Shown one piece after another: positions 827-38,609 of a stretch of DNA of 64,000 nucleotides (position 1 is its first letter; each line of letters opens with the position of its first letter). The position numbers and the translations under genes were made by a program. The DNA is from an uncultured Bacteroidales bacterium (lineage in GTDB: Bacteria > Bacteroidota > Bacteroidia > Bacteroidales > JAAYJT01), in the NCBI GenBank assembly GCA_964419945.1, contig CAYQRU010000004.1, positions 2,299-66,298 of the forward strand, written 5' to 3'. The notes under the pieces were generated by a model. That model saw only the letters and a program-made list of their open reading frames with translations. It did not search any database and was not told the DNA's origin.

Positions 827-1858
827 ATGGCAGTTTTAATATTAGGTATTGAATCTTCATGCGACGATACATCTGCAGCGGTGCTGGAAGGGAATATTGT
901 TCGCTCCAACATCATTGCCAATCAATCGGTTCACAAAGATTTCGGTGGAGTAGTTCCCGAACTTGCGAGCCGTGCTCATCAACAAAATATAATACCTGTT
1001 GTGGAAACTGCCTTAAAAACGGCAAAAGTAAAGAAATATGATATTCATGCGCTTGCCTTTACACGTGGTCCGGGCTTGCTCGGTTCTTTACTGGTTGGAG
1101 TTTCTTTTGCCAAAGCCTTTACGCAGGCATTGAATATTCCACTTATCGAGGTAGACCACATGCAGGCACATATTTTGGCACATTTTATCAGGAAAGAAAG
1201 CGAATCCAAACCCATGCCTTCGTTTCCGTTTTTATGCCTTACTGTCTCGGGTGGTCATACACAGATCGTTCAGGTAAATAGTTTTTCAGATATGAATGTG
1301 ATTGGCCAAACCATTGATGACGCTGCTGGTGAAGCTTTCGACAAGGCGGCAAAAATCATGGGATTGCCCTATCCTGGAGGTCCTGTGATTGACAAACTGG
1401 CAAGCAATGGCAGGGCTGATGCTTTCAGGTTTTCAAAACCAAATATTCCTGGCTTTGACTATAGTTTCAGTGGACTGAAAACCTCATTTCTCTATTTTTT
1501 GCGCGACCGGTTAAAATCTGATCCTCATTTTATTGAATCCAATAAAGCCGACCTGGCTGCCTCCATTCAGGCTGTCATTATTGAAATATTGACAGATAAA
1601 CTGATCAGGGCTTCTAAACAGACAGGTATCAGTGAAATTGCCATTGCAGGGGGCGTATCCGCGAATTCAGGTTTGAGAAAAAAAATGCTGGAATTACAGC
1701 AAAGTAATAGCTGGAATGTCTATCTTCCTGACTTTCATTACAGCACTGATAATGCCGCAATGATTGCGGTTGCAGGTTATTATAAATTTTTGAGAAAAGA
1801 ATTCAGCAGCCTCAGTGCAGTCCCTTACTCAAGAATAGGTCAGGGGAGTTGGACCTGA
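827..1858 (+). CDS. tsaD: tRNA N6-threonylcarbamoyladenosine biosynthesis protein TsaD
   Basis: ILGIESSCDDT, GGVVPELASRAH, HMQAH metal motif, SGGHT, DDAAGEAFDK, TDNAAMI. Confidence 0.97.
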   Translation: MAVLILGIESSCDDTSAAVLEGNIVRSNIIANQSVHKDFGGVVPELASRAHQQNIIPVVETALKTAKVKKYDIHALAFTRGPGLLGSLLVGVSFAKAFTQALNIPLIEVDHMQAHILAHFIRKESESKPMPSFPFLCLTVSGGHTQIVQVNSFSDMNVIGQTIDDAAGEAFDKAAKIMGLPYPGGPVIDKLASNGRADAFRFSKPNIPGFDYSFSGLKTSFLYFLRDRLKSDPHFIESNKADLAASIQAVIIEILTDKLIRASKQTGISEIAIAGGVSANSGLRKKMLELQQSNSWNVYLPDFHYSTDNAAMIAVAGYYKFLRKEFSSLSAVPYSRIGQGSWT

Positions 1859-2106
1859 GCATCGTAATTATTATAAAATAACTTCGTGTCATTTTTCTTC
1901 CCTGTTGATAAATTGCTAATAAATCCTAATTCTCTTGAATTGAAGTAAAAGATTGTGTGTTAGATATCCAAAAATGACTATCATTGCAACTTCTTAAGAA
2001 TAAATCTTTGATTTTGGCAAGATTTTGGCTTGTGATCCAGTTTCCCTATTACACAGGGTTATTCATGTAAAATTATTGATAAATAGTAACTTGTAAAAAA
2101 TCATTC

Positions 2107-2772
2107 ATGAAAAAGTACGCATATTATGTACTCCCGCCTGCAATTTTGATTGCAGCTTTTGTTTTTGTTGCATTTCAACAGGCAACAAAGCCATCTAAGG
2201 CAGATAAATACAAATCTGTAATAATAGGTAATCAGGAATGGATGACAGAAAATCTCAATGTTGACCGTTTTCGTAATGGCGATTTAATCCCTCAGGCAAA
2301 AACTGACCAGGAGTGGAAAATCTTTACGCAACAGGGAAAGCCCGCATGGTGTTTTTATGATAACAATTCCGCCAACGAATTGAAATACGGGAGAATGTAT
2401 AACTGGTTTGCAGTGAGTGACCCGCGCGGTCTGGCACCTGATGGTTGGCGAATTCCGATTGATTATGACTGGAAAGAACTTGGCAGAGCACTTGGTAGTG
2501 AAGAATTGGCCGGATATAAAATGAAATCAAAGAACGGATGGAATGAGAGTGGTAATGGCTCAAACTCAAGCAACTTTAACGGTTTACCGGGTGGCTACCG
2601 CCACTACAACGGGCAATTCAGTTCAGTGGGCGACAATGGATTCTGGTGGAGTGCCGATCTTTACGACAACGATAATGCAAACGCTTGTTATCTCAGCAAA
2701 AGCCTCGATAACTTTTATCGCAACTATTTCAATAAAGGCTACGGTTTTTCGGTTCGTTGCATTAAGGAATAG
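2107..2772 (+). CDS. Fibrobacter succinogenes major paralogous domain (FISUMP) protein with N-terminal anchor
   Basis: IGNQEWMTENLNV, YGRMYNWFAV, GLAPDGWRIP, FNGLPGGYR, GYGFSVRCIKE. Confidence 0.9.
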   Translation: MKKYAYYVLPPAILIAAFVFVAFQQATKPSKADKYKSVIIGNQEWMTENLNVDRFRNGDLIPQAKTDQEWKIFTQQGKPAWCFYDNNSANELKYGRMYNWFAVSDPRGLAPDGWRIPIDYDWKELGRALGSEELAGYKMKSKNGWNESGNGSNSSNFNGLPGGYRHYNGQFSSVGDNGFWWSADLYDNDNANACYLSKSLDNFYRNYFNKGYGFSVRCIKE

Positions 2773-5161
2773 CAATCCTGTTTTGCAGTTTGCCTGAAAA
2801 TATCAATGCCAGGCAATAAGCCAATATTGCGTTTAACATCACACAAGCATATCCGGCTTCAACAGCCAATAGTATCGCAAGCGGTGAAGCTATCACCGAA
2901 AAGCAGCCATTAATGCCCCATGCCCAGGGAACAATGTTGTTGTTACTTTCTGAAATAATCTTCAGTGCCACAGGAAATGGCATTCCCATAAAAAATGCCG
3001 GTAAGGCAATCACCACGAACGCAATGATCGTTTTATAAATTGCTGGCAATCCTATGGTTGCCTTCAGCAAAGGATTCAATCCGGAGAGTATTGCAGTAAA
3101 ACAAATCAGAATAATCAGGAATACAGGCAGCAAATTTTCCTGTGTCATGTTTCGTTTTCCCGAAATGTAACTTCCTGTGCCAGAGGCAATCATCATCATA
3201 GTGATTACCCATGAAGCCGCAATTACCGGCGTTCCAAAATAAATAATGAAGCGCTGAATAAAAATAATTTCAACGAACATGTATCCCAATCCCAAAGTTG
3301 AAAAATAGATGAGTACCGGCAGTTTCCTGTGACTTTTGGATTTTAACCTCAGCAGAGGCAACAAGATAAATAAAATTGCAAAAAATGTTACCTGTATTAA
3401 GGTAACATAAACTATCAGGTAGCCCAGTTCAAGGTAAGGAATTGTCTGACTGTTGTAAAGTGTTCGAAGCAAAGGCAGGGTATTGAGCCGTATGAAATGA
3501 TTGAAATATGGACTGTTATCTGTGGAAGGCTCAATATGAAAGCCATACTGGTCGAAGTTCATATTACTTGCGACAATAGAATCAATGAGACTGAAAAAAA
3601 ACGGATCGCTGAAGACATTGTATTTGTTGCGTTCAGTATCTGTAACTCCTGGTAATAATACCGGATCGAAATAAAGAGAATCGCAAAAAACACGAACCTC
3701 ATTTATTTGTTCTTCCTGAAGCGGTGATTTGGTAACAACAAAGGTAACAGTGCCCCAACTCTTGATCATTACAATGTGTTGCAATATCTTTGAAATGTTG
3801 TTTTCTCTTAGCATTTGAACAAGAGTTGCACAAATTTTCAGGGGAGTCTTTACAGGGTAATCAAGATACGATGATACTGTGAGGCAGCCATTGGGTTTCA
3901 GCGTATTCCACGTTTGGTTGAAACCCTCCAAAGTAAGCAAGTAATTTTCCTGCATGGCGCAGAGTCCTGAGGTGCCTCCAAATGCATCAGGAACAGGCAG
4001 AATAATTATATCATATTGATGTTTCGAAGATGCGAGCAATGTCCGTGAATCAATGGTGTGGACGCGAACGTTTTCGTGACTGTAAAGATATCCTGATTTC
4101 TCTGCCAGGTTGGTTTGCATCATACGAACGAGTGTTTTGTTGGGTTCAGACACAACTACTGCATTAGCTCCGCGGCGCAGAGCCTGGACTGCAAAATATC
4201 CGGTTCCCCCGTTGAGTACCAGTACAGAATCGGGTTTACAAATTGCGTATGGCAATGCAAACGTTGAGTAATCCGGCCATAAATTTGTATGCATATCAGG
4301 TTTGCTGACAATACCCGTAAAATCGCCATTGATAAAAACAGCTGGCAACGCAGGAACTTCGCCCTCGAAAGATAAACTGATTCCTGGCGCATAACGCATT
4401 GCTGTAGAAGTAATCACCTGGTTCAAACCAAAGATACCCGGCTTTTCGTAAATAATTTTTGCATCAGGAAGGTTCATCGCTTTACTCAGACTTTTATATT
4501 GTGAAATGTTTAATGTATAAGGAATTGTCTGGTTGATTAACACTGCGCAAATTAAGCCTGATGAAATAATAATGGCATAAGCAGGCGTAATTCTTTTTAG
4601 TAACAATAATCCGGAAGACACCAAAAGCAATGCGCATAATGATTTGGCTTCCCATGGAAACATCAAATTTAATACGGGTAATGCCAGCAATGCGCCCAAT
4701 CCTGATCCGATAAGGTTCATGAAATATAACCTGCTGATATCGGTAATATACACGGTAAAAATAATTCCGATTGCAAGGGCAGCAAAATAAAAAGGCAGGA
4801 AATATATGATCAGGTTGGTGGCAAGTTTCCAGAAATGATTGTAATCAATAAATAAAAGATACAGATCAAAGGAAAGAAGCTCTGTACCGGCAAGCCTCAG
4901 ACCTGGTTCAAGGCTGAGCCCGGATGCAAAAGCAAATATAGGTAACAGAGTGTTCTTATGTTTGGTAAGTTTATCCCTGAAAATAGAAATTGTCGTTCCT
5001 GCAGCTCCAAAACCGAGAAGGGCTATGGATATAATCATAAATGCAAAATGATGCCATTGCTCATTTGATAGGATTTGCATCAAAGTTATCTGCGAAGCTA
5101 TGACAGCGACTGAAAGTAGAACGAGTGCCAATCCGAATCGCAATGGTAAAACGGGCTTCAT
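2762..5161 (-). CDS. Multi-pass membrane protein with central spermidine-synthase-like / class I SAM-binding domain
   Basis: About 7 N-terminal TM helices, a soluble domain with VLVLNGGTG and YDIIILPVPD, a HIEPSTDNSPYF motif, and about 7 C-terminal TM helices ending WAWGINGCFSV. Confidence 0.75.
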   Translation of the reverse strand: MKPVLPLRFGLALVLLSVAVIASQITLMQILSNEQWHHFAFMIISIALLGFGAAGTTISIFRDKLTKHKNTLLPIFAFASGLSLEPGLRLAGTELLSFDLYLLFIDYNHFWKLATNLIIYFLPFYFAALAIGIIFTVYITDISRLYFMNLIGSGLGALLALPVLNLMFPWEAKSLCALLLVSSGLLLLKRITPAYAIIISSGLICAVLINQTIPYTLNISQYKSLSKAMNLPDAKIIYEKPGIFGLNQVITSTAMRYAPGISLSFEGEVPALPAVFINGDFTGIVSKPDMHTNLWPDYSTFALPYAICKPDSVLVLNGGTGYFAVQALRRGANAVVVSEPNKTLVRMMQTNLAEKSGYLYSHENVRVHTIDSRTLLASSKHQYDIIILPVPDAFGGTSGLCAMQENYLLTLEGFNQTWNTLKPNGCLTVSSYLDYPVKTPLKICATLVQMLRENNISKILQHIVMIKSWGTVTFVVTKSPLQEEQINEVRVFCDSLYFDPVLLPGVTDTERNKYNVFSDPFFFSLIDSIVASNMNFDQYGFHIEPSTDNSPYFNHFIRLNTLPLLRTLYNSQTIPYLELGYLIVYVTLIQVTFFAILFILLPLLRLKSKSHRKLPVLIYFSTLGLGYMFVEIIFIQRFIIYFGTPVIAASWVITMMMIASGTGSYISGKRNMTQENLLPVFLIILICFTAILSGLNPLLKATIGLPAIYKTIIAFVVIALPAFFMGMPFPVALKIISESNNNIVPWAWGINGCFSVIASPLAILLAVEAGYACVMLNAILAYCLALIFSGKLQNRIAIP

Positions 5162-5880
5162 GGCTTCTTTTCCTGGCTTCTGGTAAAAGGAACGAACCTC
5201 ACCGGCATCATGTTCCTTGTGAGGGTTTTACCGTTGATTTTCTCGACGAGTGTAAGTTGCTGTACCATGAATGGGGTTCCCACCGGTATGATCATCTTAC
5301 CACCTTCTTTTAATTGCGAGAGCAGGGGAGGGGGAATAAATTCGGCTGCAGCCGTGACGATTATTGCATCGAATGGTCCTGCAGCTTCCCATCCATCATA
5401 ACCATCGCCGCATCGAATATGAATATTCCTGTAATTCAGCTTGTTGAAGAGTTTTTCTGAATTTTCCGCAAGTTCCGGAATAATCTCAATGGTGTATACC
5501 TTACTCACGATTTGCGAAAGTATGGCCGCCTGATAACCTGAGCCTGTTCCAATTTCAAGCACTACATCGTCAGCTCCGGGATCCACTATTTCTGTCATAT
5601 ATGCAACAATATAAGGCTGTGAAATTGTTTGCCCGTAGCCGATGGGTAATGGATTATCACGGTAGGCATTCGAAGTTTGGGTTTGTGGTACAAATTGATG
5701 TCGCGGAACGATTCTCATGGCATCGAGGGTAGGTTCATGTCTGATTCCCCGGCTGAAAATCTGCTCGTTAACCATACGTTCCCTTTCGTTGCGGTATGCT
5801 TCGGGCTTTGACTGACCAGAAGTCATAGCCGGAAAAAATACGATCAATAACAGAATTGTTGCAGAAATAAATGGTTTCAT
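5158..5880 (-). CDS. pcm: Protein-L-isoaspartate O-methyltransferase with N-terminal signal-peptide-like extension
   Basis: VPRHQFVP, PLPIGYGQTISQPYIVAYM, VLEIGTGSGYQAAIL, GPFDAIIVTAA, QLKEGGKMIIPVG, VRFVPF. Confidence 0.92.
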   Translation of the reverse strand: MKPFISATILLLIVFFPAMTSGQSKPEAYRNERERMVNEQIFSRGIRHEPTLDAMRIVPRHQFVPQTQTSNAYRDNPLPIGYGQTISQPYIVAYMTEIVDPGADDVVLEIGTGSGYQAAILSQIVSKVYTIEIIPELAENSEKLFNKLNYRNIHIRCGDGYDGWEAAGPFDAIIVTAAAEFIPPPLLSQLKEGGKMIIPVGTPFMVQQLTLVEKINGKTLTRNMMPVRFVPFTRSQEKKP

Positions 5881-5968
5881 ATTCGCATGGTGTTGGGTTG
5901 AAACGGAAGTACGATGAGGACAAACTTACAAAAAAAACCAATTGGTGCTGTTGACACCAGATTAACAC

Positions 5969-6007
5969 AAAATAAAACCCCATTACGGTTATATGCCGTA
6001 ATGGGGT
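5969..6007 (-). terminator. Intrinsic terminator after the rpoBC-DUF3467 operon
   Basis: Perfect 12-bp stem ACCCCATTACGG/CCGTAATGGGGT with 7-nt loop, followed on the minus strand by TTTATTTT. Confidence 0.85.
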
Positions 6008-6028
6008 CACTATTGTTTTTGGAGTGAA

Positions 6029-6337
6029 TCAGGCTTGTGCTGTCGGTGCACCAAGGCTGAAAGGCAGGTTGTCAGCTTCCGACTCTTTGATCATACCATG
6101 CATGGATTCAAACTTTGCAATATTTTCTTTCAGAGCTTTCAGCAATCGTTTGGTATGTTGAGGAGTCAGAATGATCCTCGATTTTACCTTGGCTTTTGGT
6201 ATTCCGGGCATCATTTTCACAAAATCAATAATGAATTCAGATTGAGAATGTGTGATTATAGCCAGGTTTGAATATATACCTTCGGCGATTTCGTCGGAAA
6301 GTTCAATGTTAATCTGTTGATTTTTTGGAGGTTCCAT
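6029..6337 (-). CDS. DUF3467 family protein
   Basis: INIELSDEIAEGIYSNLAIITHSQSEFIIDF...VKSRIILTPQHTKRLL; the usual rpoC-downstream gene in Bacteroidota. Confidence 0.85.
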   Translation of the reverse strand: MEPPKNQQINIELSDEIAEGIYSNLAIITHSQSEFIIDFVKMMPGIPKAKVKSRIILTPQHTKRLLKALKENIAKFESMHGMIKESEADNLPFSLGAPTAQA

Positions 6338-6377
6338 TTTAATTCATATTTAAGTTACTGGCAGGGAGGTATGGCGC

Positions 6378-9300
6378 TTATTTATCGCTTTTCGATGCCA
6401 TCAGTTGTTCATATTCTTCTGTTGATCCAACAATGATGCGGTCGTACTCCCGCAGGCCTGTACCTGCCGGAATCAAATGACCCACTATTACGTTTTCTTT
6501 TAATCCTACCAGTTCGTCTCTTTTAGCGTTCACTGAAGCTGATGTCAACACCTTGGTAGTTTCCTGGAAAGAGGCAGCCGAAATCCAGCTTTTGGTTTGC
6601 AATGAAGCACGGGTGATGCCCTGAAGTACCTGACGGGCAGTTGCAGGTTTGGCATCGCGGGCTTCAACCAATGCTTTATCACGGCGCTTCAGAAGCGAAT
6701 TTTCGTCACGGAGTTTACGAGCTGTAAGAATTTGTCCTGCTTTATAATTGGCTGAGTCACCTGCATTGACAACAACTTTTTTCCCGAAAATCCAGTCGTT
6801 TTCTTCATGGAAATCGGTTTTATTCACCAACTCGCCTTCAAGGAATTTTGTATCGCCGGGATCTTCAACTTCAACCTTACGCATCATCTGCCGGACGATT
6901 ACTTCAAAGTGCTTGTCGTTGATCTTCACACCCTGAAGGCGATATACTTCCTGGACTTCATTCACGATATACTCCTGAACTTTCATTGGGCCTTTTATAG
7001 CGAGAATGTCAGCAGGAGTAATAGCTCCGTCGGAAAGGGGAGTACCTGCTTTGACATAATCGTTTTCCTGAGCGAGAATCTGCTTGGTGGTCGGTACAAG
7101 GTAACTTTTTTCTTCTCCTGTTTTTGAAGTGATTATTACTTCTCTGTTTCCGCGCTTCAATTTCTTGCCAAATGAAACAACACCATCAATTTCAGATACA
7201 ACGGCGGGATCGGAGGGATTACGCGCTTCGAATAATTCGGTGACACGTGGTAAACCTCCGGTGATGTCACCGGTTTTACCGATGGCTCTGGGAATTTTCA
7301 CCAGGATTTCTCCCGCTTTGATCTGATAACCTTCTTCCACAATAATGTGGGCTCCAACAGGAATATCATAAATCCTGAGGGGTACGTTGTCGTCCGACAT
7401 GATCCTGATGGCGGGATTCTTGGCCTTATGACGGGTTTCAATTACCACTTTGTCATGATATCCGGTTTGTTCATCAGATTCCACTTTATAAGTGACACCC
7501 TCGATGATATTGTCATAAACAATCTTACCTGAAACCTCCGATAGAATCACCGCATTGTAAGGATCCCATTCTGCAATAAGATCACCGTTAGTAATTTCAG
7601 CACCACTGCGGAAATATAGTTTTGCTCCATAAGGAATATGAGCTGATGTCAGCGGGATGCCTGTATTTTTATCAATAATACGCATTTCGGCAGAACGTCC
7701 GATCACCATATCTATCATTCTTCCATCAGAACCTTGGTATTCAACATAACGTAATTCATCAATTTCAATCGTACCATTATACCTGGATTGAATTTTTGAG
7801 GAAATGGCAATGCTGGAAGCGGTACCACCGACGTGAAAGGTTCTCAGGGTAAGCTGTGTTCCTGGTTCACCAATGGATTGTGCCGCAATCACACCTACTG
7901 CCTCTCCTTTCTGAACCATATATCCGGTGGCAAGATTTCTACCATAACACTTTGCACACACTCCCTGTTTCGATTCGCAGGTAAGAACTGAACGTATTTC
8001 AACAGATTCGATTGGGGATTCTTCGATGATACGGCAGATATTTTCAGTTAATTCTTCACCAGCAGATATGATCAATTCTCCCGTGTTGGGGTGGTGCACG
8101 TCGTGCAGGGTGACACGGCCAAGGATACGGTCATAAAGTGTTTCGACAACTTCTTCACTCTTTTTCAGCGCAGTGATCATCAAACCACGCAAAGTCCCGC
8201 AATCTTCTTCTGAAATGATCACATCCTGCGAAACATCCACAAGACGTCTTGTAAGGTATCCGGCATCGGCTGTTTTTAAAGCAGTATCTGCCAATCCTTT
8301 TCGTGCGCCGTGGGTAGAAATGAAGTACTCGAGCACGGACAGTCCTTCTTTGAAGTTTGATAATATGGGATTTTCAATAATTTCACCACCCGTTGCAGTG
8401 GATTTTTGAGGTTTGGCCATCAAACCGCGCATGCCTGAGAGCTGACGAATCTGTTCTTTGGAGCCACGGGCACCTGAATCAAGCATCATATAAACCGGAT
8501 TGAATCCTTGTTTATCTCTTACAAGTTTATCCATCAGGGTGATGGTGAGATGAGAATTGGTGTGCGACCAGACATCAATAATTTTATTATACCGCTCATT
8601 GTTGGTAATAAATCCCATGTTGTAGTTCATGAGGATTTCTTCAACTTCCTGGTTGGCTTCATCAATCAGCCTGACTTTTTCCTCCGGAACGATTACATCT
8701 CCAAGATTAAAAGAGAGACCACCTTTGAATGCCATGTAGAATCCAAGGTCTTTGATATTATCGAGAAATCTGGCAGCCTTGGCATTGTCGGTTTTCTTCA
8801 GAATATCACCGATAATATCCCTGAGGGCTTTTTTATTCAATACCTGATTGATATATCCATATTCTTTGGGGACTACCTGATTAAAAAGTACACGTCCTAC
8901 AGTAGTATCAATGATTTTATTGATAAAAGTGCCATTTTCAGGAACTTCGATTCTTGCCTTGATAAAAGCATGTAAATCAACTTTGCGTTCGTTGTAGGCA
9001 ATGATGACTTCTTCAGGAGAGTAGAAAATCATTCCCTCACCTTTCACCGGATGTTCGGGTGTGTTTTTTCGGCCTTTGGTCATGTAATAAAGACCCAGCA
9101 CCATGTCCTGCGACGGAACAGTAATTGGTGCACCATTTGCAGGATTCAGAATGTTATGGGAAGCCAGCATAAGAATCTGTGCCTCCAGAATGGCTGCATT
9201 TCCTAACGGAACATGCACTGCCATCTGGTCTCCGTCAAAGTCGGCATTAAATGCTGTACAAACCAGAGGATGCAATTGTATTGCCTTACCTTCAATCAGT

Positions 9301-28492: not shown

Positions 28493-28754
28493 TCCATTGA
28501 CGATGCCGGGGATTTTTCCGGGCTGCAGCAAAGGTAAGTTATCCCGGTTGCAGCGTTTTCTTTGAGCAGCTTGCATACCGTTGTAAGCAACAAAATCCTA
28601 TTTTTGTTCTCCTAAGCCATGCTGTTACTGATCCCCATGTCAAAAACCCTCATCACCCAGTAATACAACCTTTTTGACAAAGTCATTAGAGTTTATTGCA
28701 TTTAAATGGAAAGGCCTGATTAAAATGAAATTCATAATCTTCCTGGTATATTTC

Positions 28755-28874
28755 AATAAATTCAACACCTGCCACTTCGCCGATTACAAGGCAAAAGTAA
28801 TTGACCTGCTGAAACGGGTTTGTACGGTGAGCGTGGAGACGGTGAGGATAGAGGGGGAGATGGAGAATGCTTGA
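28755..28874 (+). pseudogene. C-terminal remnant of a type ISP restriction-modification enzyme
   Basis: NKFNTCHFADYKAKVIDLLKRVCTVSVETVRIEGEM resembles the type ISP C-terminus (recalled pattern FNTYRFADYKEKVIDLL.RVT.VSVET); there is no upstream helicase or MTase coding sequence. Confidence 0.6.
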
Positions 28875-29108
28875 TCAAACTTACACGCTTTGCCACACAT
28901 ACTCGTAGGAAATATCATAGTCCTATTGCGGTTTCATCCAATACTCCCTGAAATCCAAGGCTAACTTTTATAAGAAAACCCCAAAGATGATCCGACCAAT
29001 CCCGGAAGTTCCGGATCAACATTTTGATGCGCAGTTGGTACACTTTTCAATGCCGGGATTATCACAGATACTGCCCACATTTATTATTCCCGCCCGCTCC
29101 TGAAGGGT

Positions 29109-31508
29109 TCATGGCAGGCGGTCAGGAGTCCATGTTTCTTTACGATCAGTCTGGGATAATCCGTATCCCATTCTCAAAAAGATCAACCTTCCCGGGTTTT
29201 CATTGAGATTGTCGTCAATATACTTCACGTCGAAGATATTATCAATTTGCAGCGATGCGGTGAAGTGTTTCCTGAAGGTCTTGTCAAACCGTATGTTGAT
29301 GATCATATACTCATCGAAACGGTCGGCAAAAAAATACTCTGTATCCCTGGTATTCCATTCATTGATCCAGGTTTTGCCATGAAACTTTGCCAGCACAGAA
29401 GTACTAAAGTATTTTTGCTGCCACCTTATACCACCCGATAATTTATGGGTAGGAAGGTCAGTCAGATATTTCCCTGTCAGCACAGAATCAACAGTAATAT
29501 CTTTCACGTTGTGCCTGATAATCTTAGCTTTTGTAAAAGTGTAGTTGCCAAAACAGGAAAGATCTTCTGTAATGTCAAACCTGATCTCGGTTTCCATACC
29601 GCTGATCCCAACCCGCCCGATATTACTTCTGGAAATTATCGGAGCACGTCTGTAGCCCATATTCACGGTGTCGCCGGTGCTGGTGAAGTACATAAAATCT
29701 TCGCCTATACTATGAAACAGCGAAGCAGTAAGCAGCAGACTATTCCTGACCAAAACATCGCTTCCAAGTTCAAACGCATCAATCAGTTCAGGTTTCAGTC
29801 CTGGATTAGCAATGGCAAAGGTACCCCTTCTGTTTGCGGTACGGCTCAGGTCATCGAGTACCGGGGACCTGAATCCCCTCGCATAAGAAACAAAGATCCT
29901 TGAATTGTCAGCATAATTGAAGCGTAGTGAGAGACGGGGCGACAACGCATCCCAGCTTTTCATGGGCAGGTTGTGTGTTTCATAATTTTTGTAAAAGGCA
30001 ATCGAATAGGAAGGAAAATCAATGGAGAAATGCGCGTCGCTGAAACGGGCGTAATCGTATCTGATTCCGGCATTTAATGCCAGCTTGTTCTTCAGGATCA
30101 CAAACTCGTCCTGGAGGTATACGGCCATGATATCAAGCTTGCCGGAATTTTTAATTATGTCAGTAGAAGTGAAATAGACATCCCGGCCATCTACGGAACC
30201 TGATTTACCGCTCAATCCCGCACTGATTTTGTGTCTGCTGAATCTGTACAGGTCAAAATCCAGGTTCACACCCACATCTTTTCTGGTAGCATCTGCTTCG
30301 TAAAGTTTGTATTCTCCTTCGTTCATGTACTCGTACACCCTGAAATATTTCTCAGTGTTGTTATATATATTCAATTGCCATTTCAGTTGCTTATACATTC
30401 CGCGGTATTTCGTCATCAGAAACAAGGTCTGATGCCGGGAGAAGGCCCCGAAATCATCGAAAACTTTCACCCCGTTCCCGCGTTTGTCATGAAAATACTG
30501 CGCATGAAGTTCCACCTCGTGGTTATCGCCATAATCAAAACCTGTCTTCAATGCTGTGGCATATTCCTCAAGGTAAGCAGGTACAAGAATAGTATCTTCT
30601 TTGGTATGAAATACTTCGGGTGTGGTGATGTAACCATCACTATGTCGCGTATTGGCTGTAAGATCCCAGAAGAATGGCAATTCTCCCTTACCCGTTTTTT
30701 GTGTACCCGAAAATCTTAGATCACCACTAATAGTATTCAGGCTGCCATATTCCAGGTTAATTTCTCCTCCGGGTTTTTCTGAAGGTCGTCTGGTTCTGAT
30801 CTCTATCACACCTCCCATGGCGCTGCTACCGTATTTGGCAGGACCGGGACCTTTGATCACATGTATCTCTTCCAGGTTGTTTTTCTGTAATGCATTCCAG
30901 TTAACCGAACCTCCGTCAGCTTTATTGAGGGGCATTCCATCCATGACCACCAGCGTACGGCTTTGATCATTGGCTGGCATTCCACGCATGGAAACGACTG
31001 CTCTGCTTGAGAAGATACCTGTAGTGCTGCTGCTAATAACTCCTGAAGTAAAATCGAGCATCTGGCTGATGCTTATGGTAGGGGATGTTGTAATTTCCTG
31101 TAGGTCAATTGTGTGAATCCTCTGTGGCTGCTGTAAATGCATCTGAACCTTGTGTGCAATGATCTCAACAGGATCAGCCACAAAAACAGTGTCTTCGAGT
31201 AAGATAGTTACAAAATTTCTTTGCCCGGGTTTTACCTCCACATTGACTTCTTTCTTCTGATAGCCTATATGACTTACAACAACATCATAACTACCAGCAC
31301 CCAGTCCGGAAATGATGAAATTTCCTTCGGCGTCAGATGTACTCCCGGCTTTCCGGTATTTGATGATTATGTTGGCTCCGTTCACAACCTGTCCGGATGA
31401 TGCCGAAATCACTTTTCCATGCAATGATTCCTGCCTGGATTGAGCAAACGAATCAACCCAAAGCATATGAATGATCAACAGGAATAATACAAACTGTATT
31501 TTAACCAT
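29109..31508 (-). CDS. TonB-dependent receptor (non-SusC, BtuB/CirA-like) with carboxypeptidase-regulatory-like N-terminal domain
   Basis: Signal peptide; GKVISASSGQVVNGANII N-domain; plug motifs SMRGM, TLVVMDGMPL, IHVIKGPGPAKYGSSAMGGVI; barrel motifs NPGLKPE, QIDNIFD. Confidence 0.92.
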   Translation of the reverse strand: MVKIQFVLFLLIIHMLWVDSFAQSRQESLHGKVISASSGQVVNGANIIIKYRKAGSTSDAEGNFIISGLGAGSYDVVVSHIGYQKKEVNVEVKPGQRNFVTILLEDTVFVADPVEIIAHKVQMHLQQPQRIHTIDLQEITTSPTISISQMLDFTSGVISSSTTGIFSSRAVVSMRGMPANDQSRTLVVMDGMPLNKADGGSVNWNALQKNNLEEIHVIKGPGPAKYGSSAMGGVIEIRTRRPSEKPGGEINLEYGSLNTISGDLRFSGTQKTGKGELPFFWDLTANTRHSDGYITTPEVFHTKEDTILVPAYLEEYATALKTGFDYGDNHEVELHAQYFHDKRGNGVKVFDDFGAFSRHQTLFLMTKYRGMYKQLKWQLNIYNNTEKYFRVYEYMNEGEYKLYEADATRKDVGVNLDFDLYRFSRHKISAGLSGKSGSVDGRDVYFTSTDIIKNSGKLDIMAVYLQDEFVILKNKLALNAGIRYDYARFSDAHFSIDFPSYSIAFYKNYETHNLPMKSWDALSPRLSLRFNYADNSRIFVSYARGFRSPVLDDLSRTANRRGTFAIANPGLKPELIDAFELGSDVLVRNSLLLTASLFHSIGEDFMYFTSTGDTVNMGYRRAPIISRSNIGRVGISGMETEIRFDITEDLSCFGNYTFTKAKIIRHNVKDITVDSVLTGKYLTDLPTHKLSGGIRWQQKYFSTSVLAKFHGKTWINEWNTRDTEYFFADRFDEYMIINIRFDKTFRKHFTASLQIDNIFDVKYIDDNLNENPGRLIFLRMGYGLSQTDRKETWTPDRLP

Positions 31509-31531
31509 TGCTATAGAGACTTCCGGAAATA

Positions 31532-32446
31532 TTACTGTTGGATTTTAATGTCCAGTTCCATAAAGCCGTTGTCTGTATTATCATTATGTAAGACTTTAAT
31601 CAGACCCAGTTTTCCGGAAGCTGTCTTAAAAGGTATGATCTTTCCTTCGGTGGCCCATTTGAACTTTTTCTTTCCCCATACTTCGTTGTAGGAGAGGATG
31701 AGAAGGCTATCGTTCTGGGCGGCATCAAATGCTTCGGCAGCAATGGGTGCGCCGTCCACGCTGATATCCCACAGGGTGTAATTACGTGTTTGCCAGGTCA
31801 TGATTGTTGGATAAAAATTTTTCGCATCATCGCTGAAATTATCCATTTCGCCGGGTGACGACAATGTGGGTCCCGGGGGATTATCTTCATTTTTGAAATA
31901 ACAAAGCATATCAACGGCTTGCTGAAACAAATGCGCGGAGTCGACACCGTAAACTTTTCCGGTGGCAGGAATCAAAAACTGCCCGTAATCAGTATTGTTT
32001 TGGAATCCAAGCCTGACAGAGGGGAGATAATAAATCCCTCCAAATAATGAATTGGGGTCTTTATGCACTACAAGACTGATTTCTGCGCTCAGCCTTTCTC
32101 TGTCCATCACTGCAAATAACCAGGTAACGACAGGTTCGACATTCTGAAAAAACGATTTTTCCACATCAACATAAGTAGCATAAAGTGCCGTATCCATTAC
32201 CACCACCGTGTTCCCATCTGCCAGTTTCTTTTTAATGGTGAAGTTGGTGATATGGCTGTCGTCACTGCGTGCCTGAATACCAAAGAAAAGACTATGCCCA
32301 ACTGCAACAGTATCATTGTTTTGTGTATAATATGCACCTGTCTTGAAATTGATTACCGGTGGTTTGTATTTCTTTTCTTTCCTGCAACCCAGAACGATGC
32401 ATACTGCAAGGATAAGGCACCAATATTGAAAAAGTCGCTGATTCAT
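31532..32446 (-). CDS. Uncharacterised surface lipoprotein
   Basis: Lipobox IVLG-C followed by RKEKK; C-terminal IPFKTASGKLGLIKV motif seen in Bacteroidota surface lipoproteins; 23 bp from the TBDR gene. Confidence 0.7.
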   Translation of the reverse strand: MNQRLFQYWCLILAVCIVLGCRKEKKYKPPVINFKTGAYYTQNNDTVAVGHSLFFGIQARSDDSHITNFTIKKKLADGNTVVVMDTALYATYVDVEKSFFQNVEPVVTWLFAVMDRERLSAEISLVVHKDPNSLFGGIYYLPSVRLGFQNNTDYGQFLIPATGKVYGVDSAHLFQQAVDMLCYFKNEDNPPGPTLSSPGEMDNFSDDAKNFYPTIMTWQTRNYTLWDISVDGAPIAAEAFDAAQNDSLLILSYNEVWGKKKFKWATEGKIIPFKTASGKLGLIKVLHNDNTDNGFMELDIKIQQ

Positions 32447-32559
32447 GAGGGTTCGATTTGTTGATTAATCAGTAATTAATAAACATTGACAGATTCTTCA
32501 ATTATCTGAAAATGAATGATTTGTTATATCATACATGCTTTGAAAGGATCTGGATGGCA

Positions 32560-33438
32560 TTATCTTACCACTGTCTTGATTGACTTTAGATGGCCATCTT
32601 TTCCAACGCAATTTACAAAGTACACACCGGGCAGGTAATTGTCAATGACCAATTCTTTCATTTCATTGATATTTTTCTCGAAAACAAGCCCACCCCTGGT
32701 ATCATAGATTTTTATACTGGTGGTATTCATCAGATTTTTGATTGCAAAAGTGCCAATGGCAGGATTAGGATATACAACAGGTTCATAAGATTGTTCAATT
32801 TCCCTGATCCCGGTAATGGCTTCACCAGTGATGATAATATTATCTATCAATGTGCTTCCGCCGGGTTGTATGGGATTATTGTTAATATCCAGATTGGATG
32901 CCAATATCCATCTGATGGAAATATTGCTGTTAAGGTTTTCACATTCTGCGGGAAGACTGATGCCATCAACAAATCCATTTTCCCAACTGTCGGTGCATAT
33001 AACGGTTGAGAGTTCATTCCATGGTGATGACCCCGATAATTTATATTGTATTTTAAAGTCTCTTGGGCCTGGTGTTCCGGTTTCTGATTTTTGCCTGCTG
33101 TAAAGCTTAATATTTTTATACCCCGGTGTACGGAATTTCACCATCCAGTAGATGGAATCAGCACCATCGTTCCATCCGGTTGTCTTGGCACATTTATCAG
33201 TACCTCCGTCAAAACCGTTGGCCGTGTAATCAATCTCAAGCTCGAAATAGGAGGGAGTACCGAATGTTCCATATTCACATGACAGGAAGCGGTTCACATT
33301 GGTTGGGATAGCCACATCAGGAAACTCATCTGCAGAATTTTCCGGAAAGATCCATCCCGCGATTGTGTCCTGTGCCAGCATGTTTGCTGAGATCAGCAAT
33401 AAAGCAAGCATTCCTGTGAGCGTCATTTTTCTTTTCAT
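32560..33438 (-). CDS. T9SS type A sorting domain protein with beta-rich N-terminal domain
   Basis: Sec signal (MLA-Q); CTD with VYPNPA, IKIYDTRG, LPGVYFV and terminal KTVVR. Confidence 0.85.
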   Translation of the reverse strand: MKRKMTLTGMLALLLISANMLAQDTIAGWIFPENSADEFPDVAIPTNVNRFLSCEYGTFGTPSYFELEIDYTANGFDGGTDKCAKTTGWNDGADSIYWMVKFRTPGYKNIKLYSRQKSETGTPGPRDFKIQYKLSGSSPWNELSTVICTDSWENGFVDGISLPAECENLNSNISIRWILASNLDINNNPIQPGGSTLIDNIIITGEAITGIREIEQSYEPVVYPNPAIGTFAIKNLMNTTSIKIYDTRGGLVFEKNINEMKELVIDNYLPGVYFVNCVGKDGHLKSIKTVVR

Positions 33439-33528
33439 AGCATTTCATTTTTAGGTTAATGATTTGAAATAGAATAATTTACTTCATTATCAAGCAATTT
33501 GTGTTGCTCAGAAATTTTCAGTTTCAAC

Positions 33529-33553
33529 CCGTTATGTAAAATTTGCATAACGG
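33529..33553. promoter_or_regulatory. Palindromic operator candidate 1 (ModE-box-like)
   Basis: CCGTTATG-TAAAATTTG-CATAACGG: perfect 8-bp inverted repeat, no U tract on either side, 90 bp upstream of the T9SS-LP-TBDR genes. Confidence 0.6.
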
Positions 33554-33565
33554 TAATTAAAAAAT

Positions 33566-33940
33566 TTATTCGACAATTTTGTTCAGATCATCCATCATTT
33601 TATTGAAATGACTGAGAATGCCTGGTTCAATTTCTTCATAGAGTTTATCAAAAAACTGAACGATTTTTTCTCCTTTGGGTGTAAGCAAAGTCTCTCCGCC
33701 TTTTTTACCTCCCCTTTGTTTGTCAATTAGCTTGAATCCAAGGCGTTCTTCAATATTTTTCAGGTTTTGCCAGGTTTGCCGGTAGCTATAGCCCATGATG
33801 CCAACGGCTGCTTTGAGTGAACCTGTTTCTTTTATCGCTTTGAGTAGTCTCCACTTTCCTTCACCCAGTACACTGATTGAAGCATCCGTTTCGATCCAGA
33901 ACTTATACCGAAGGTGCAGTTGCTGTGGCTTTGGACTCAT
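33566..33940 (-). CDS. ModE-type winged-helix transcriptional regulator (N-terminal domain only; start taken at ATG 33940)
   Basis: LGEGKWRLLKAIKETGSLKAAVGIMGYSYRQTW...QRGGKKGGETLLTPKG matches the ModE DNA-binding domain; no TOBE/molbindin domains. Confidence 0.85.
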   Translation of the reverse strand: MSPKPQQLHLRYKFWIETDASISVLGEGKWRLLKAIKETGSLKAAVGIMGYSYRQTWQNLKNIEERLGFKLIDKQRGGKKGGETLLTPKGEKIVQFFDKLYEEIEPGILSHFNKMMDDLNKIVE

Positions 33941-34087
33941 CTCAATTATTTTTTCACATATTTTTGACAAAGAAACGGGCTGCAACCCTTGTTCAATGCA
34001 GAATCTTTCTATTCAATACGCAATGGATTGATTTTACACATATTTCTCATCAAACAAATTTACAGAATATAAAATTGTTGCATCTTT

Positions 34088-34112
34088 GCGAAATGCAAAA
34101 TTAACATAACGG
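34088..34112 (+). promoter_or_regulatory. Operator candidate 2 (related to site 1)
   Basis: GCGAAATGCAAAATTAACATAACGG matches the reverse complement of site 1 at 20 of 25 positions; it overlaps the end of a CATCTTTG -7-like element, 18 bp before the ATG at 34131. Confidence 0.55.
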
Positions 34113-34130
34113 TTCAAATCTACACATGTC

Positions 34131-35210
34131 ATGACAAAAAAAATGTTATTTTCAATTGCTGCGGTACTGCTGATCTTTGTGCTCGCAGCACAGAAATTTA
34201 TGTCAGAAACCAATTCCGATGCAATCAGCGGCGCAACAAAACCCATGGCAACGGACGGTAACAGTTTGTTTCACAAGACAAAGGAAGTAAGCCTGAAATC
34301 CGGATCGCTTGAGATAGAAGGCGAGGTGCAGTTGCCCGGGAAAGTTGACTTTGATAAATTATACAAAAGGGAAGTATTTATAAAAGAAGCGCTGTTCGAC
34401 AAAACATCAGGCATTGACTTTATCGGTGCATACCGTTATCGGGGTTACTCTCTTTTCGATATATTACATCCATTTATACACCATAAAAAGAACATTGAAA
34501 TATTCCGTCCTGCCATTGATCTTTATGTGATCATTGAAAATTCTGCCGGTGATAATGTTGTATTTAGCTGGTCTGAGATTTTTCATACCAACAATCCTCA
34601 CCAGGTGATGATTGCCACTGAAATGGCACCGGTTGTTCCCTATCGCAAAGAAGTCAGCTACATCACAGGCGATACCTGGAAAGTTGTAGCTTCAAACGAT
34701 TTATTCGCATACCGTGTACTGGTTGATCCCGTTAAGATTGTTGTCCGTTCATTCGACAGGAAAGACTATCCCATAAACAGGGAACTTGATCCGCTTTACA
34801 GTCCTGAAGTGCATGTGCTGCTTCATGAAACCACAATTCTGGACATTAATCCCATTGAGGATGAAAGTAAATACGTCCGGTATTATTCAAGCTTTTACGG
34901 TATGGGTATGGGATATCATCCGGCTAAATATTTTCAGGGACCTACACTTAAAAGCATACTGGAGAATTCTGTTGATCTGTTTGATCCCGGACTGATCCGT
35001 CATGGATTGGTATGTTTTGCAGGCGTGGATGGCTACAGGACTATATTTAGTTTCAGTGAGTTATTCAACCGTACCGACCAGGTATTCGCGATTCTTGCCG
35101 TTGCTGATGATCCAAATGATGGAGGTTTTTACAGGATTTTCCATCCTGCTGAGTTTTATGCCGACCGCTCGGTCAAATCGTTGACTGAGATTTATATGTT
35201 TACACATTAA
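34131..35210 (+). CDS. Exported protein with DxxSGAT motif and two molybdopterin-oxidoreductase-like (MsrP/SO) folds
   Basis: Hydrophobic N-terminus; DAISGAT at aa 30-36; repeat 1 SLEIEGEV..YRGYSLFDIL..GDNVVFSWSEI; repeat 2 FQGPTLKSIL..GVDGYRTIFSFSEL..GGFYRIFHP..DRSVKSLTEI. Confidence 0.6.
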   Translation: MTKKMLFSIAAVLLIFVLAAQKFMSETNSDAISGATKPMATDGNSLFHKTKEVSLKSGSLEIEGEVQLPGKVDFDKLYKREVFIKEALFDKTSGIDFIGAYRYRGYSLFDILHPFIHHKKNIEIFRPAIDLYVIIENSAGDNVVFSWSEIFHTNNPHQVMIATEMAPVVPYRKEVSYITGDTWKVVASNDLFAYRVLVDPVKIVVRSFDRKDYPINRELDPLYSPEVHVLLHETTILDINPIEDESKYVRYYSSFYGMGMGYHPAKYFQGPTLKSILENSVDLFDPGLIRHGLVCFAGVDGYRTIFSFSELFNRTDQVFAILAVADDPNDGGFYRIFHPAEFYADRSVKSLTEIYMFTH

Positions 35211-35477
35211 TCCACCATGAGTTAGCATTCGGAAGTTCGGGGTCAACAGTTAGTCAGCTTGAAACCTGAGTGAGTGTGCAATGCCACCATAAGAAAAGTA
35301 CATGCCTCAAAACTGTTAACTGCCTGTAGAGACTGCCTTTTTCTGGATATTCCTGCTATTTGATACTGCAGTCAGGATCATTCTGAACGGCATCTTTATA
35401 AAATTTGTATTTTCGTGGCTGAAATTCACTTCAGGCTCCGAATACTTATTTTAAACCCTGAAACATAACACTCAGAC

Positions 35478-36800
35478 ATGCAAATACTGGAAGAATTGAA
35501 AAAACTGCTTCACTTTTTTAAGCTCGATGCAGAACTGGAAAATCATGATATCATTCATGAAGAGATCAGGAAAGGGATCATCTTCAAAGGCACGAATCTA
35601 TGGGTATTGATGTTTGCCATCATTGTTGCATCAGTGGGTTTAAACATGAACTCAACTGCTGTTATTATCGGCGCTATGTTGATCTCTCCGCTGATGGGGC
35701 CAATCAATGGCATGGGCTACAGTATTGCCACGTATAATTTTGATCTTTTCCGTCAATCACTGAAGAATTTCAATTTTGCAGTAATTGCAAGCCTTTTCGC
35801 ATCTACTGTGTATTTTGCATTGAGTCCTATTTCGACCGCACATTCAGAATTACTTGCCCGCACCAGTCCAACCATCTACGATGTACTAATCGCATTGTTT
35901 GGAGGGCTGGCAGGGATTGTTGCCATCAGCAGCCGTTTGAAGGGAAATGTGATACCCGGCGTGGCTATTGCAACCGCATTGATGCCTCCACTTTGCACTG
36001 CAGGATATGGCCTGGCGACTTTCCAGTTTAATTATTTTTTTGGAGCGGTCTACCTGTTTACCATTAACACAATTTTCATTGCTTTTGCATCTGTTTGGGT
36101 TTCACAGATACTTAAGTTTCCGATACGGGGCGCTATCGAAGAAAGGCGCAAGAAGAAGATTAACAGTACTATTACAGCCATCATCACAGTAGTTCTGCTG
36201 CCGAGTATTTATTTTGGTTACCAGCTTACCCAGCAGGAAAAATTTTTTCAGAGCGCTAGTAAATATGTTTCTAATGTCAGCCTGCATGAAGGGAATTACC
36301 TTTTAAACTATTCGATTGATCCTAAAACAAAGAATATCATATTGGTTTACGGTGGTAATCTTCTGAATGAAAAACAGAAAGATGCTATTGCCGATAAATC
36401 AAAGGATTTTGACCTTAAAGATGCAAATATCACAGTGGAGCAGGGACTGACATTTGGTGATTTAAATGAAAAAGCAGGAGAAGTATTCCGTTTGCAGGAG
36501 CAGATCAATCTGTTACATATTGCTTTGGATCAGCGTGTGGCTGAAATTGACAGCATCAGGCAAAGAGACGCTTTTGGAAGTGTAATCCTTGGAGAAATTA
36601 GCGCGCTTTTTCCACAGGTTGCTGGTTGTTCATATTCTGACACCTATGTGTTTCACGATACCTTAACATCTCCACTGAAGACTTCGGTTGTGATTTTGTC
36701 ACTTGACAGGAAAGGACTATCATCAGAGGAAAAACAACGAATCGGGCTTTGGCTCAAAAAAAGACTGACTGGCGAGAGTGTGAAAGTAATTTTCGAATGA
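35478..36800 (+). CDS. DUF389 / TIGR00341-family membrane protein
   Basis: VASVGLNMNSTAVIIGAMLISPLMGPI, PGVAIATALMPPLCTAG. Confidence 0.9.
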   Translation: MQILEELKKLLHFFKLDAELENHDIIHEEIRKGIIFKGTNLWVLMFAIIVASVGLNMNSTAVIIGAMLISPLMGPINGMGYSIATYNFDLFRQSLKNFNFAVIASLFASTVYFALSPISTAHSELLARTSPTIYDVLIALFGGLAGIVAISSRLKGNVIPGVAIATALMPPLCTAGYGLATFQFNYFFGAVYLFTINTIFIAFASVWVSQILKFPIRGAIEERRKKKINSTITAIITVVLLPSIYFGYQLTQQEKFFQSASKYVSNVSLHEGNYLLNYSIDPKTKNIILVYGGNLLNEKQKDAIADKSKDFDLKDANITVEQGLTFGDLNEKAGEVFRLQEQINLLHIALDQRVAEIDSIRQRDAFGSVILGEISALFPQVAGCSYSDTYVFHDTLTSPLKTSVVILSLDRKGLSSEEKQRIGLWLKKRLTGESVKVIFE

Positions 36801-36845
36801 TTTGAAATTACTTGTTTAGAGAAAAATGTAACGGTGTCAGGATTT

Positions 36846-38609
36846 CTATAGCTGAACCAGAAAAACTTCCTTTTTCCCGTTTCTAATTATTTCAACAATA
36901 ACAGTTTCACCAGTGTTCAGACTATTCAGTCTGGCCATGAATTCGTATATGTTTTCTACCTGCAATCCATTCATTCCGATAATTATATCGCCTTTTTGAA
37001 TTCCTGCCCTTGCAGCAGGACCATCCTGCCGGACACCATCTACACCAAGTCCCTGCCGGGCAGAAGCAATGTCTGGTATTATTCCTAAGGTAACTTTATA
37101 ACCACGCCCCATACCTCTGCGCATCATTGTACCGCTCTCAGCAAAGGTAAGCTCTTCATCTCGGTTTGCAAGATGCTTACTGAGAGCATGAACGAACTCA
37201 CAAATGCTTTTATGACCATCCATATTGAGTTTTTCCCAGGAGTCATCAGGTGTGTGATAATCCTCATGTGCACCGGTAGTGATAAACAGCACCGGTATTG
37301 AAGCTGAGTAGAATGAGGCATGGTCAGAAGGGCCATATCCATCGGGCTGCCGGTTGATTTTAAAAGGATAATCAGGCTCCAGAAGCGTAAGAATTTCATT
37401 CATTTCCTTTGCTGTTCCTGTCCCTCCAACCGTAAGAGACATATCTTCTTTCAACCTTCCTATCATATCAAGGTTAATCATTGCTTTGATCTGTCCGGGA
37501 GCAAACGGAGCATGATCAATGAAGTATTTTGATCCGATCAATCCCATTTCTTCTGCGCCAAAAGCAATGAATATGATAGATCGTTTGTTATCAAAGCGTT
37601 CTGAAGAAAATGTCGTTGCCAGTTCGAGCAATGCGGCAATGCCAGAGGCATTATCATCAGCGCCATAATGGATGGCCAATGTATCTGGCATTCGCGATCC
37701 GGAGCCTGTTCCGCCCATTCCAAGATGATCGTAATGTGCTCCAATCACGATGTATTCTTCATTGAGATGCCGGTGGTTTCCGGGAAGTTTGGCAACCACA
37801 TTCTGTGTATTGACCCTTACATATTCCAGACTAACTTTGGCTTCGACCTGGGTGAAAGTCTCGAAAGAAAACGGTTGCATTGATGCCTGGAGCTCTTTTT
37901 CAAGATCTTCCAATTTAAAACCTCTTCCTGAAATAAGGTGATTTGCCAATTTGCGTGTAATATTTAGAACAGGTAATCCTGAATCAGACGCATTCTTATC
38001 GTAATAAGCAGGCATAAGCTTATCCTCTTTGTCAAGAGAGGTTCCTTTCACAAGTAGCAACCCAATTGCACCACGGTCGCGGGCATTAATGGCTTTCATC
38101 CTGTCTGATGCATGTGCGATAAAATCACTTTTCGGGTTTTCTGGTTCCGGATCACCGACAAGAGCGAGTATCCATTTTCCGTTTACATCAGAATTGGCAT
38201 AGTCATCCCACCGGCCAGGCATGACAATACCATAACCGGCAAAAAATACCTGTCCTTTGGCAGTTGCATTTGCTGAAAAAGATAATGGAACAAAATCAAC
38301 TTCCACCGAAGTTTCAAAATCTTCGGTCAAAAGATAATTTTCTCCTGCATACTTTACACCTGTTACGACATCAAACGACTGAAATCCATTGTCGAACATT
38401 AGCTTTAAACCGCTTTCAGCAAAATGATCCCTGATATAAGCAGCAGCAAATTTGTCGCCTTCAGTTCCGGGATACCTGCCCTGCAATTGTTCACTGCTCA
38501 GATATTGAATATGATGAAGCGATCGTTCACTTTTAAATGTCTGCGGGTAAAGCTGCAATGTCATTCCTGAAAACAGAATGACAGCCACTATGCTACGAAT
38601 CATAGACAT
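36846..38609 (-). CDS. M28 family zinc aminopeptidase with PA and C-terminal PDZ domains
   Basis: IGAHYDHLG, GADDNASG, GAEEMG, NLDMIGR, SDHASF, DYHTP; PDZ LGIIPD..GPAARAGIQKGD. Confidence 0.92.
   Translation of the reverse strand: MSMIRSIVAVILFSGMTLQLYPQTFKSERSLHHIQYLSSEQLQGRYPGTEGDKFAAAYIRDHFAESGLKLMFDNGFQSFDVVTGVKYAGENYLLTEDFETSVEVDFVPLSFSANATAKGQVFFAGYGIVMPGRWDDYANSDVNGKWILALVGDPEPENPKSDFIAHASDRMKAINARDRGAIGLLLVKGTSLDKEDKLMPAYYDKNASDSGLPVLNITRKLANHLISGRGFKLEDLEKELQASMQPFSFETFTQVEAKVSLEYVRVNTQNVVAKLPGNHRHLNEEYIVIGAHYDHLGMGGTGSGSRMPDTLAIHYGADDNASGIAALLELATTFSSERFDNKRSIIFIAFGAEEMGLIGSKYFIDHAPFAPGQIKAMINLDMIGRLKEDMSLTVGGTGTAKEMNEILTLLEPDYPFKINRQPDGYGPSDHASFYSASIPVLFITTGAHEDYHTPDDSWEKLNMDGHKSICEFVHALSKHLANRDEELTFAESGTMMRRGMGRGYKVTLGIIPDIASARQGLGVDGVRQDGPAARAGIQKGDIIIGMNGLQVENIYEFMARLNSLNTGETVIVEIIRNGKKEVFLVQL

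Follow-up and report, generated by a model that had tools for sequence, protein, structure and literature searches.

The operators of ModE, the Mo-boxes, are normally bound more tightly by the protein when it carries molybdate. The box of Escherichia coli ModE has the consensus ATCGNTATATA-N6-TATATANCGAT (PMC545781). The box of the archaeon Methanosarcina acetivorans, RTTATGT-N8-RCATAAY, is bound by recombinant ModE in EMSA, and the binding in vitro is independent of molybdate (PMC12327845). Short proteins with the ModE N-terminal domain alone include the Agrobacterium protein 2IJL, which is 135 residues long, and the DNA-binding-domain-only ModE proteins of Desulfovibrio (PMC545781). A search of the literature for a ModE motif or regulon in Bacteroidota, or for a TonB-dependent receptor for molybdenum or tungsten, returned nothing relevant. 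The passage of molybdate and tungstate oxyanions through the outer membrane is poorly understood.

The window analyzed here, a 64,000-nucleotide stretch of the genome of an uncultured Bacteroidales bacterium, contains two related sites that flank the gene of a ModE-like regulator (Table 1). Site 1 is a perfect 8-N9-8 palindrome at positions 33529–33553, CCGTTATG-TAAAATTTG-CATAACGG, with a 23-base core that reads CGTTATG-N9-CATAACG without a mismatch. It is located 91 nucleotides 5' of the start codon of an operon encoding a T9SS cargo protein, a lipoprotein, and a TonB-dependent receptor. Site 2, GCGAAATGCAAAATTAACATAACGG, occupies positions 34088–34112 and shares 20 of its 25 bases with the reverse complement of site 1; the mismatches are at positions 1, 4, 5, 13, and 16. 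Rereading of the window reproduced the two sequences and the degree of identity given in the first-pass annotation. The tails that follow the sites, GGTTGAAA or GTTCAAA, had also been listed there as a shared feature, G(G)TT[GC]AAA; the tail is present at both sites but is not conserved at orthologous sites, and is probably incidental.

Table 1 Features of the regulator locus (positions in the window; the sites, the operon, and the fold are predicted)
Feature	Position	Strand	Basis or remark
124-residue regulator, ModE-type N-terminal winged-HTH domain only	33566–33940	−	TIGR00637, PF00126, phmmer
Site 1 (predicted class T operator)	33530–33552	−	reads CGTTATGCAAATTTTACATAACG on the minus strand
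T6 run	33559–33564	−	spaced exactly 6 nt from site 1; may be a promoter element or a bending tract
Predicted target operon	29109–33438	−	Pfam, NCBIfam; synteny with the regulator
T9SS-sorted 292-residue protein	32560–33438	−	Pfam/NCBIfam
304-residue lipoprotein	31532–32446	−	Pfam/NCBIfam
799-residue TonB-dependent receptor	29109–31508	−	Pfam/NCBIfam
−7-type promoter box of the 359-residue protein gene	34081–34088	+	CATCTTTG; directly abuts site 2
Site 2 (predicted class P operator)	34089–34111	+	reads CGAAATGCAAAATTAACATAACG; ATG of the 359-residue protein gene 19 nt on
359-residue exported protein, predicted sulfite-oxidase/PruR pterin-binding fold	34131–35210	+	AF2 and Foldseek

The regulator scores 70 bits on the ModE profile TIGR00637, which is under the cut-off of 98.5, and 32 bits on PF00126, which is above the cut-off of that family. 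Its best phmmer match in the PDB is 2IJL with an E-value of 2e-9, followed by the N-terminal domain of E. coli ModE (1B9M) with 6.5e-7. Both alignments span residues 25–105 and include a conserved SY[RK]xxW helix. Judged from these matches, the DNA-binding domain is homologous to that of ModE, although it falls outside the curated TIGR00637 threshold. The C-terminal Mop/TOBE domains of full-length ModE are absent from the 124-residue protein according to Pfam and NCBIfam profiles, and no separate Mop protein is encoded in the genome, in which the sole TOBE match is a WtpC-like ATPase. The regulator is present as a single copy in the genome and presumably binds both sites.

The sites share with the Mo-boxes of E. 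coli and other proteobacteria the organization of an inverted repeat with outer CGnTAT and ATAnCG arms and an AT-rich center. The proteobacterial box overlaps the promoter of uptake genes and is read by a winged HTH of the ModE type, and a comparable arrangement is predicted for the sites in the window. However, the proteobacterial box is 24 bp long, whereas the sites in the window span 23 bp, and the inner triplet is GCA/TGC in the window instead of ATA/TAT in E. coli. Furthermore, the regulator from the window has no Mop domains, and it would act on a TonB-receptor operon and a PruR-fold gene rather than on modABC. The half-sites GTTATG and CATAAC are identical to those of the M. acetivorans box, and ModE of M. 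acetivorans is encoded beside a WtpABC-related transporter. By contrast, the gap between TTATG and CATAA is 10 nucleotides in the archaeal box and 9 in the window, and the archaeal protein has retained a single Mop domain and regulates the genes of nitrogenase. The likeness to ModE boxes, with a longer spacing in the latter, had been pointed out in the first-pass annotation, and it agrees with the published consensus sequences; the E. coli and archaeal boxes are one base longer in the center (PMC545781, PMC12327845). The short ModE proteins of Agrobacterium and Desulfovibrio resemble the regulator in length and in consisting of the ModE N-terminal domain alone. They differ in being located at modABC loci, and the sites predicted for Desulfovibrio, CGGTCACG-N14-CGTGACCG, are unrelated to those in the window (PMC545781). 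The sites of the window contain the (C)GTTAT(G)...(C)ATAAC(G) inverted repeat that characterizes Mo-box half-sites. The 24-bp span is replaced by one of 23 bp, with 9 nucleotides between the arms, in the window and in most of its clade, and is present in loci L053, L055, L057, L025, L026, L027, and L029. The two sites are very probably a 23-bp variant of the ModE box, which would be read by a ModE N-domain protein that has no sensor.

Homologues of the regulator were drawn from related genomes (16 of 41) and from public metagenome-assembled genomes (39 loci). The latter belong to uncultured Bacteroidales, and some carry the label Lentimicrobiaceae or Sphingobacteriia. A weight matrix, applied iteratively, gathered 59 sites with the consensus CG-w-n-a-TG-c-a-(w5)-t-g-CA-t-n-w-CG, in which C1, G2, T6, and G7 of one half and C17, A18, C22, and G23 of the other are nearly invariant. 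The relative entropy is 1.2–1.3 bits per position within the site and 0.1–0.2 bits in the flanks. Throughout the 327 kb of locus sequence, all matches scoring 17 bits or more fall in two places. Class P, with 26 distinct sites, is positioned directly 5' of the homologue of the gene for the 359-residue protein, and class T, with 29 distinct sites including seven tandem pairs, directly 5' of the TonB-receptor operon.

The presence of the motif upstream of orthologous operons was one check set by the first-pass annotation, and the motif was found there: the 23-bp form precedes the gene of the 359-residue protein, the TonB-receptor operon, or both in 28 of the 34 orthologous loci, defined as those with a regulator identity of at least 56%. 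Three more loci (L053, L055, and L057) have a 24-bp version, CGnnnTG-N10-CAnnnCG, and L039 and L048, from which the target genes are missing, are without a site. Class P orthologues of site 2 occur in 25 further loci. Class T orthologues of site 1 occupy the same place in 19 loci, and in three others they are found at the relocated operon promoter. In these three (L058, L059, and L061), inversion makes the receptor operon converge on the regulator; the site is located at the operon promoter about 4 kb from the regulator, the 3' end of which is without a site.

Regulator homologues from more distant Bacteroidota, with 33–41% identity, are accompanied by a perfect CGTTAT-N12-ATAACG in L026, L027, and L029 and by the N11 form in L028. 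All four sites are placed between the gene of the regulator homologue and that of a 650-residue TonB receptor. The occurrence of perfect sites beside both genes in distant homologues indicates that the site and the regulator travel together. The arms without the center, CGWTATG-N9-CATAWCG, were rejected as an informative pattern, because they are found in 24 of the 301 genomes of the order, compared with about 22 for the reversed control. The only arms-only matches that adjoin homologues of the regulator or the receptor are those with an AT-rich center. Specificity requires an AT-rich center of the TGCA type.

Within the window, the 23-bp core pattern has one match without mismatches, and site 2 is the sole other match with up to two mismatches. 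The 3.87-Mb draft genome contains one perfect match to the arms pattern and ten matches with two mismatches, one of which is site 2. The weight matrix assigns 32.8 bits to site 1 and 30.6 bits to site 2. A leave-out matrix built from 51 sites from other genomes, with the window and its two nearest relatives excluded, gives them 32.0 and 29.9 bits, which are ranks 1 and 2 in the genome. The third-ranked match reaches 16.8 bits with the leave-out matrix, and shuffled genomes top out at 14.5–17.9 bits. Weak matches of 13–17 bits at C37:7822, C7:187, and C2:43717 were rejected because they lie within the shuffled range and beside unrelated genes. The one at C7:187–209, of 15 bits, is located 3 nucleotides past a −7-like box, TACCTTTG, ahead of a 544-residue open reading frame; it is probably a chance match, although its geometry recalls class P. 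As defined by the motif in this 95% complete assembly, in which the wtpA promoter is truncated, the regulon consists of two transcription units only, both of them local. No further site was found near the start of the regulator gene, and autoregulation in this genome is thus unsupported.

The primary sigma factor of Bacteroidota recognizes a −7 element with the consensus TAnnTTTG (PMC7366714). The TTTG of this element ends at C1 of the site, forming a TTTG/CG junction with no intervening nucleotide, in 19 of the 26 class P sites, and one nucleotide earlier in three more. A −7-like element abutting site 2, in the geometry expected of a repressor, had been noted in the window, and it proves to be a recurrent arrangement of the class. 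A conserved TTGCA, at positions 34078–34082 in the window, is found just 5' of the TTTG in most class P promoters (tTGCAnnTTTG/CG); it resembles the inner portion of a half-site and may represent a third contact or an extended −7 box specific to the clade. The sites of class T, including those of L033–L063, have neither an abutting TTTG nor a clear −7 box. Instead, a run of five to nine T residues ends exactly 6 nucleotides before C1 in 21 of 29 sites, second members of tandem pairs included. This rigid module differs from the TTTG/CG geometry and is a candidate −7 variant, bending tract, or other element. A scan for sigma-70-type promoters and terminators identified nothing above shuffled sequences. 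Repression is less certain at site 1 than at site 2.

Taken together, the two sites are likely to be cognate operators of the adjacent ModE N-domain protein, acting in the circuit outlined here. This was the reading of the first-pass annotation, and comparative genomics supports it through the conservation of the sites, their following of the promoter, the abutment of the −7 box, and the lack of covariation between the arms. The regulator dimer would read a pair of inverted CG-w-n-a-TG half-sites, in which the invariant CG and TG bases are one helical turn apart across the dyad. Since site 2 begins right after the −7 box of the PruR-fold gene, a dimer bound there would extend over approximately the start site and the initial 20 nucleotides and so repress the gene. 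ModE covers the start region likewise at modA. Site 1 with its upstream T-run would control the operon of the T9SS cargo protein, lipoprotein, and TonB receptor. A sufficient supply of the metal would most likely shut off this putative outer-membrane module for acquiring tungstate or molybdate, or pterin-bound molybdenum or tungsten. We infer binding and repression from the sequence, conservation, and placement of the sites and from the homology of the DNA-binding domain; that metal sufficiency is the signal for shut-off is most likely by analogy to ModE and from the company of WtpA, WtpBC, and MoaA/MoeA in relatives.

The position of site 1, 13 nucleotides past the stop codon of the regulator, and its 8-bp stem, which can fold with −9.6 kcal/mol, are features that an intrinsic terminator or an RNA hairpin ending the regulator transcript would have, with the likeness to site 2 being incidental. 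This explanation is very improbable, because site 1 is not followed by a U-run, the gene of the 359-residue protein is preceded by the same motif, and the motif follows the receptor promoter when the operon is inverted. Watson–Crick pairs at the variable arm positions are no more frequent than would be expected from independently varying arms; in class T, for instance, their numbers were 16 versus 14.4 expected for positions 3/21, 15 versus 14.8 for 4/20, and 19 versus 18.3 for 5/19. Site 1 of the window is the only class T site in which nine of nine pairs are complementary. Among the orthologous sites, the minimum free energy varies between 0 and −16 kcal/mol, and several of the sites are unable to fold (0 to −2.5 kcal/mol). 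The conserved stable stem and the U-run of an intrinsic terminator are both absent. The absence of covariation between the arms and the lack of conservation of hairpin stability argue for site 1 as a protein-binding site rather than a terminator. A chance resemblance of the two sites, or their origin as copies of a dispersed repeat without a regulatory role, is less probable still. AT-rich intergenic DNA is rich in imperfect palindromes, and the arms-only pattern occurs at a random rate across the order; however, the genome contains two copies only, both far above the shuffled maximum, and their orthologous positions are held in about 30 loci with diverged flanks, which refutes this reading.

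It is harder to dismiss, but still unlikely, that the sites are genuine operators bound by another transcription factor, or that the ModE N-domain protein activates instead of represses. The T-run at a fixed distance of 6 nucleotides in class T, in the place of a clear −7 box, is compatible with this, and E. coli ModE is also able to activate (PMC12327845). By contrast, the half-sites equal those of ModE boxes, and across clades the motif is found together with the regulator gene, its spacing shifting along with the divergence of the regulator. In addition, the position of site 2 directly 3' of the −7 box is a poor one for an activator. The assignment of the sites as operators of the neighboring regulator is preferred.

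The gene of the 359-residue protein is divergent from that of the regulator, and its product has no match at the sequence level in Pfam or the PDB. The AF2 model of the protein has a pLDDT of 84. The best Foldseek matches of the model are sulfite dehydrogenase 2BLF, with an E-value of 7e-5, and the PruR entries 7KOM, 7KP2, and 7KOS, all with a probability of 1.00; the TM scores normalized to the target are 0.62–0.65 for 7KOM and 7KP2. Synteny between the receptor operon and the regulator is found in loci L018–L023, L025, L031, and L033–L063.

WtpA and WtpBC are components of the tungstate-type ABC transporter. In locus L023 of a genome from the same genus (G003, positions 1187–8198), one strand carries, in this order, an AOR-like gene for a 717-residue protein, a 24-bp site, the regulator (38% identity), WtpA with 304 bits on TIGR03730, which is above the cut-off, another 24-bp site, the TonB receptor, and the PruR-fold gene. 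Through this cassette, the module is directly connected with a tungstate-type binding protein and a putative tungstoenzyme. L025 has a 24-bp site followed by the receptor, the PruR-fold gene, WtpB, WtpC, and the regulator, whereas L024 has a site upstream of the regulator, which is at the head of MoaA and MoeA. The genome that contains the window encodes WtpA at C51:47–1024 (TIGR03730, 307 bits), 46 nucleotides from the contig end, with its promoter outside the assembly. WtpB- and WtpC-like genes are located 10 kb from WtpA at C51:11273–13115 and have no operator. The link to the metal rests on the relatives, because wtpBC of this genome lack a site and the wtpA promoter is cut by the contig end. 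An Rfam search over positions 28500–37000 identified no riboswitch or other RNA family. The TonB-receptor operon and the pterin-fold protein are most likely under tungsten or molybdenum control.

A wider interpretation, to which we give slightly less than even confidence, is that these loci represent a ModE regulon without a sensor domain that is widespread in uncultured Bacteroidales and present in other Bacteroidota. The core of the regulon would not be an ABC importer but an outer-membrane module composed of a TonB-dependent receptor, a surface lipoprotein or T9SS cargo, and a periplasmic protein with the PruR/sulfite-oxidase fold, and the module would provide a new active route for tungsten or molybdenum, possibly in pterin-bound form, across the outer membrane. 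If this is true, the module would be an undescribed means of actively importing these metals, and the metal would signal to the regulator through an undescribed mechanism. Taken as an operator prediction alone, the result is of an expected kind. The motif offers a cis-element that is precise and open to testing for a regulator family without a recognizable sensor domain, and it links a family of TonB-dependent receptors and a pterin-fold protein to putative tungsten or molybdenum control in Bacteroidota. The defined operator may enable regulon mapping in hundreds of uncultured genomes.

The architecture of the sites varies among the relatives. Tandem operator modules, each composed of a T-run and a site, are located before the receptor gene, 50–145 nucleotides past the regulator stop, in seven loci (L035, L036, L037, L038, L041, L042, and L049), which suggests cooperative binding or tandem promoters. 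Sites of 24 bp with N10 instead of N9 between TG and CA are found at L053:2948–2971, L055:4850–4873, L057:5582–5605, and L025:4134–4157. Because the 24-bp version occurs inside one regulator clade, the dimer may tolerate, or co-evolve with, a change of 1 bp in the spacing. A further cassette, at L022:5358–8021 and L031:2254–4837, consists of the regulator, a 251–255-residue protein without annotation (MxxxIGIDDTDN...), a 184–200-residue protein, a lipoprotein, and a TonB receptor, and its sites are of the GGTTATG-N10-CATATCG type.
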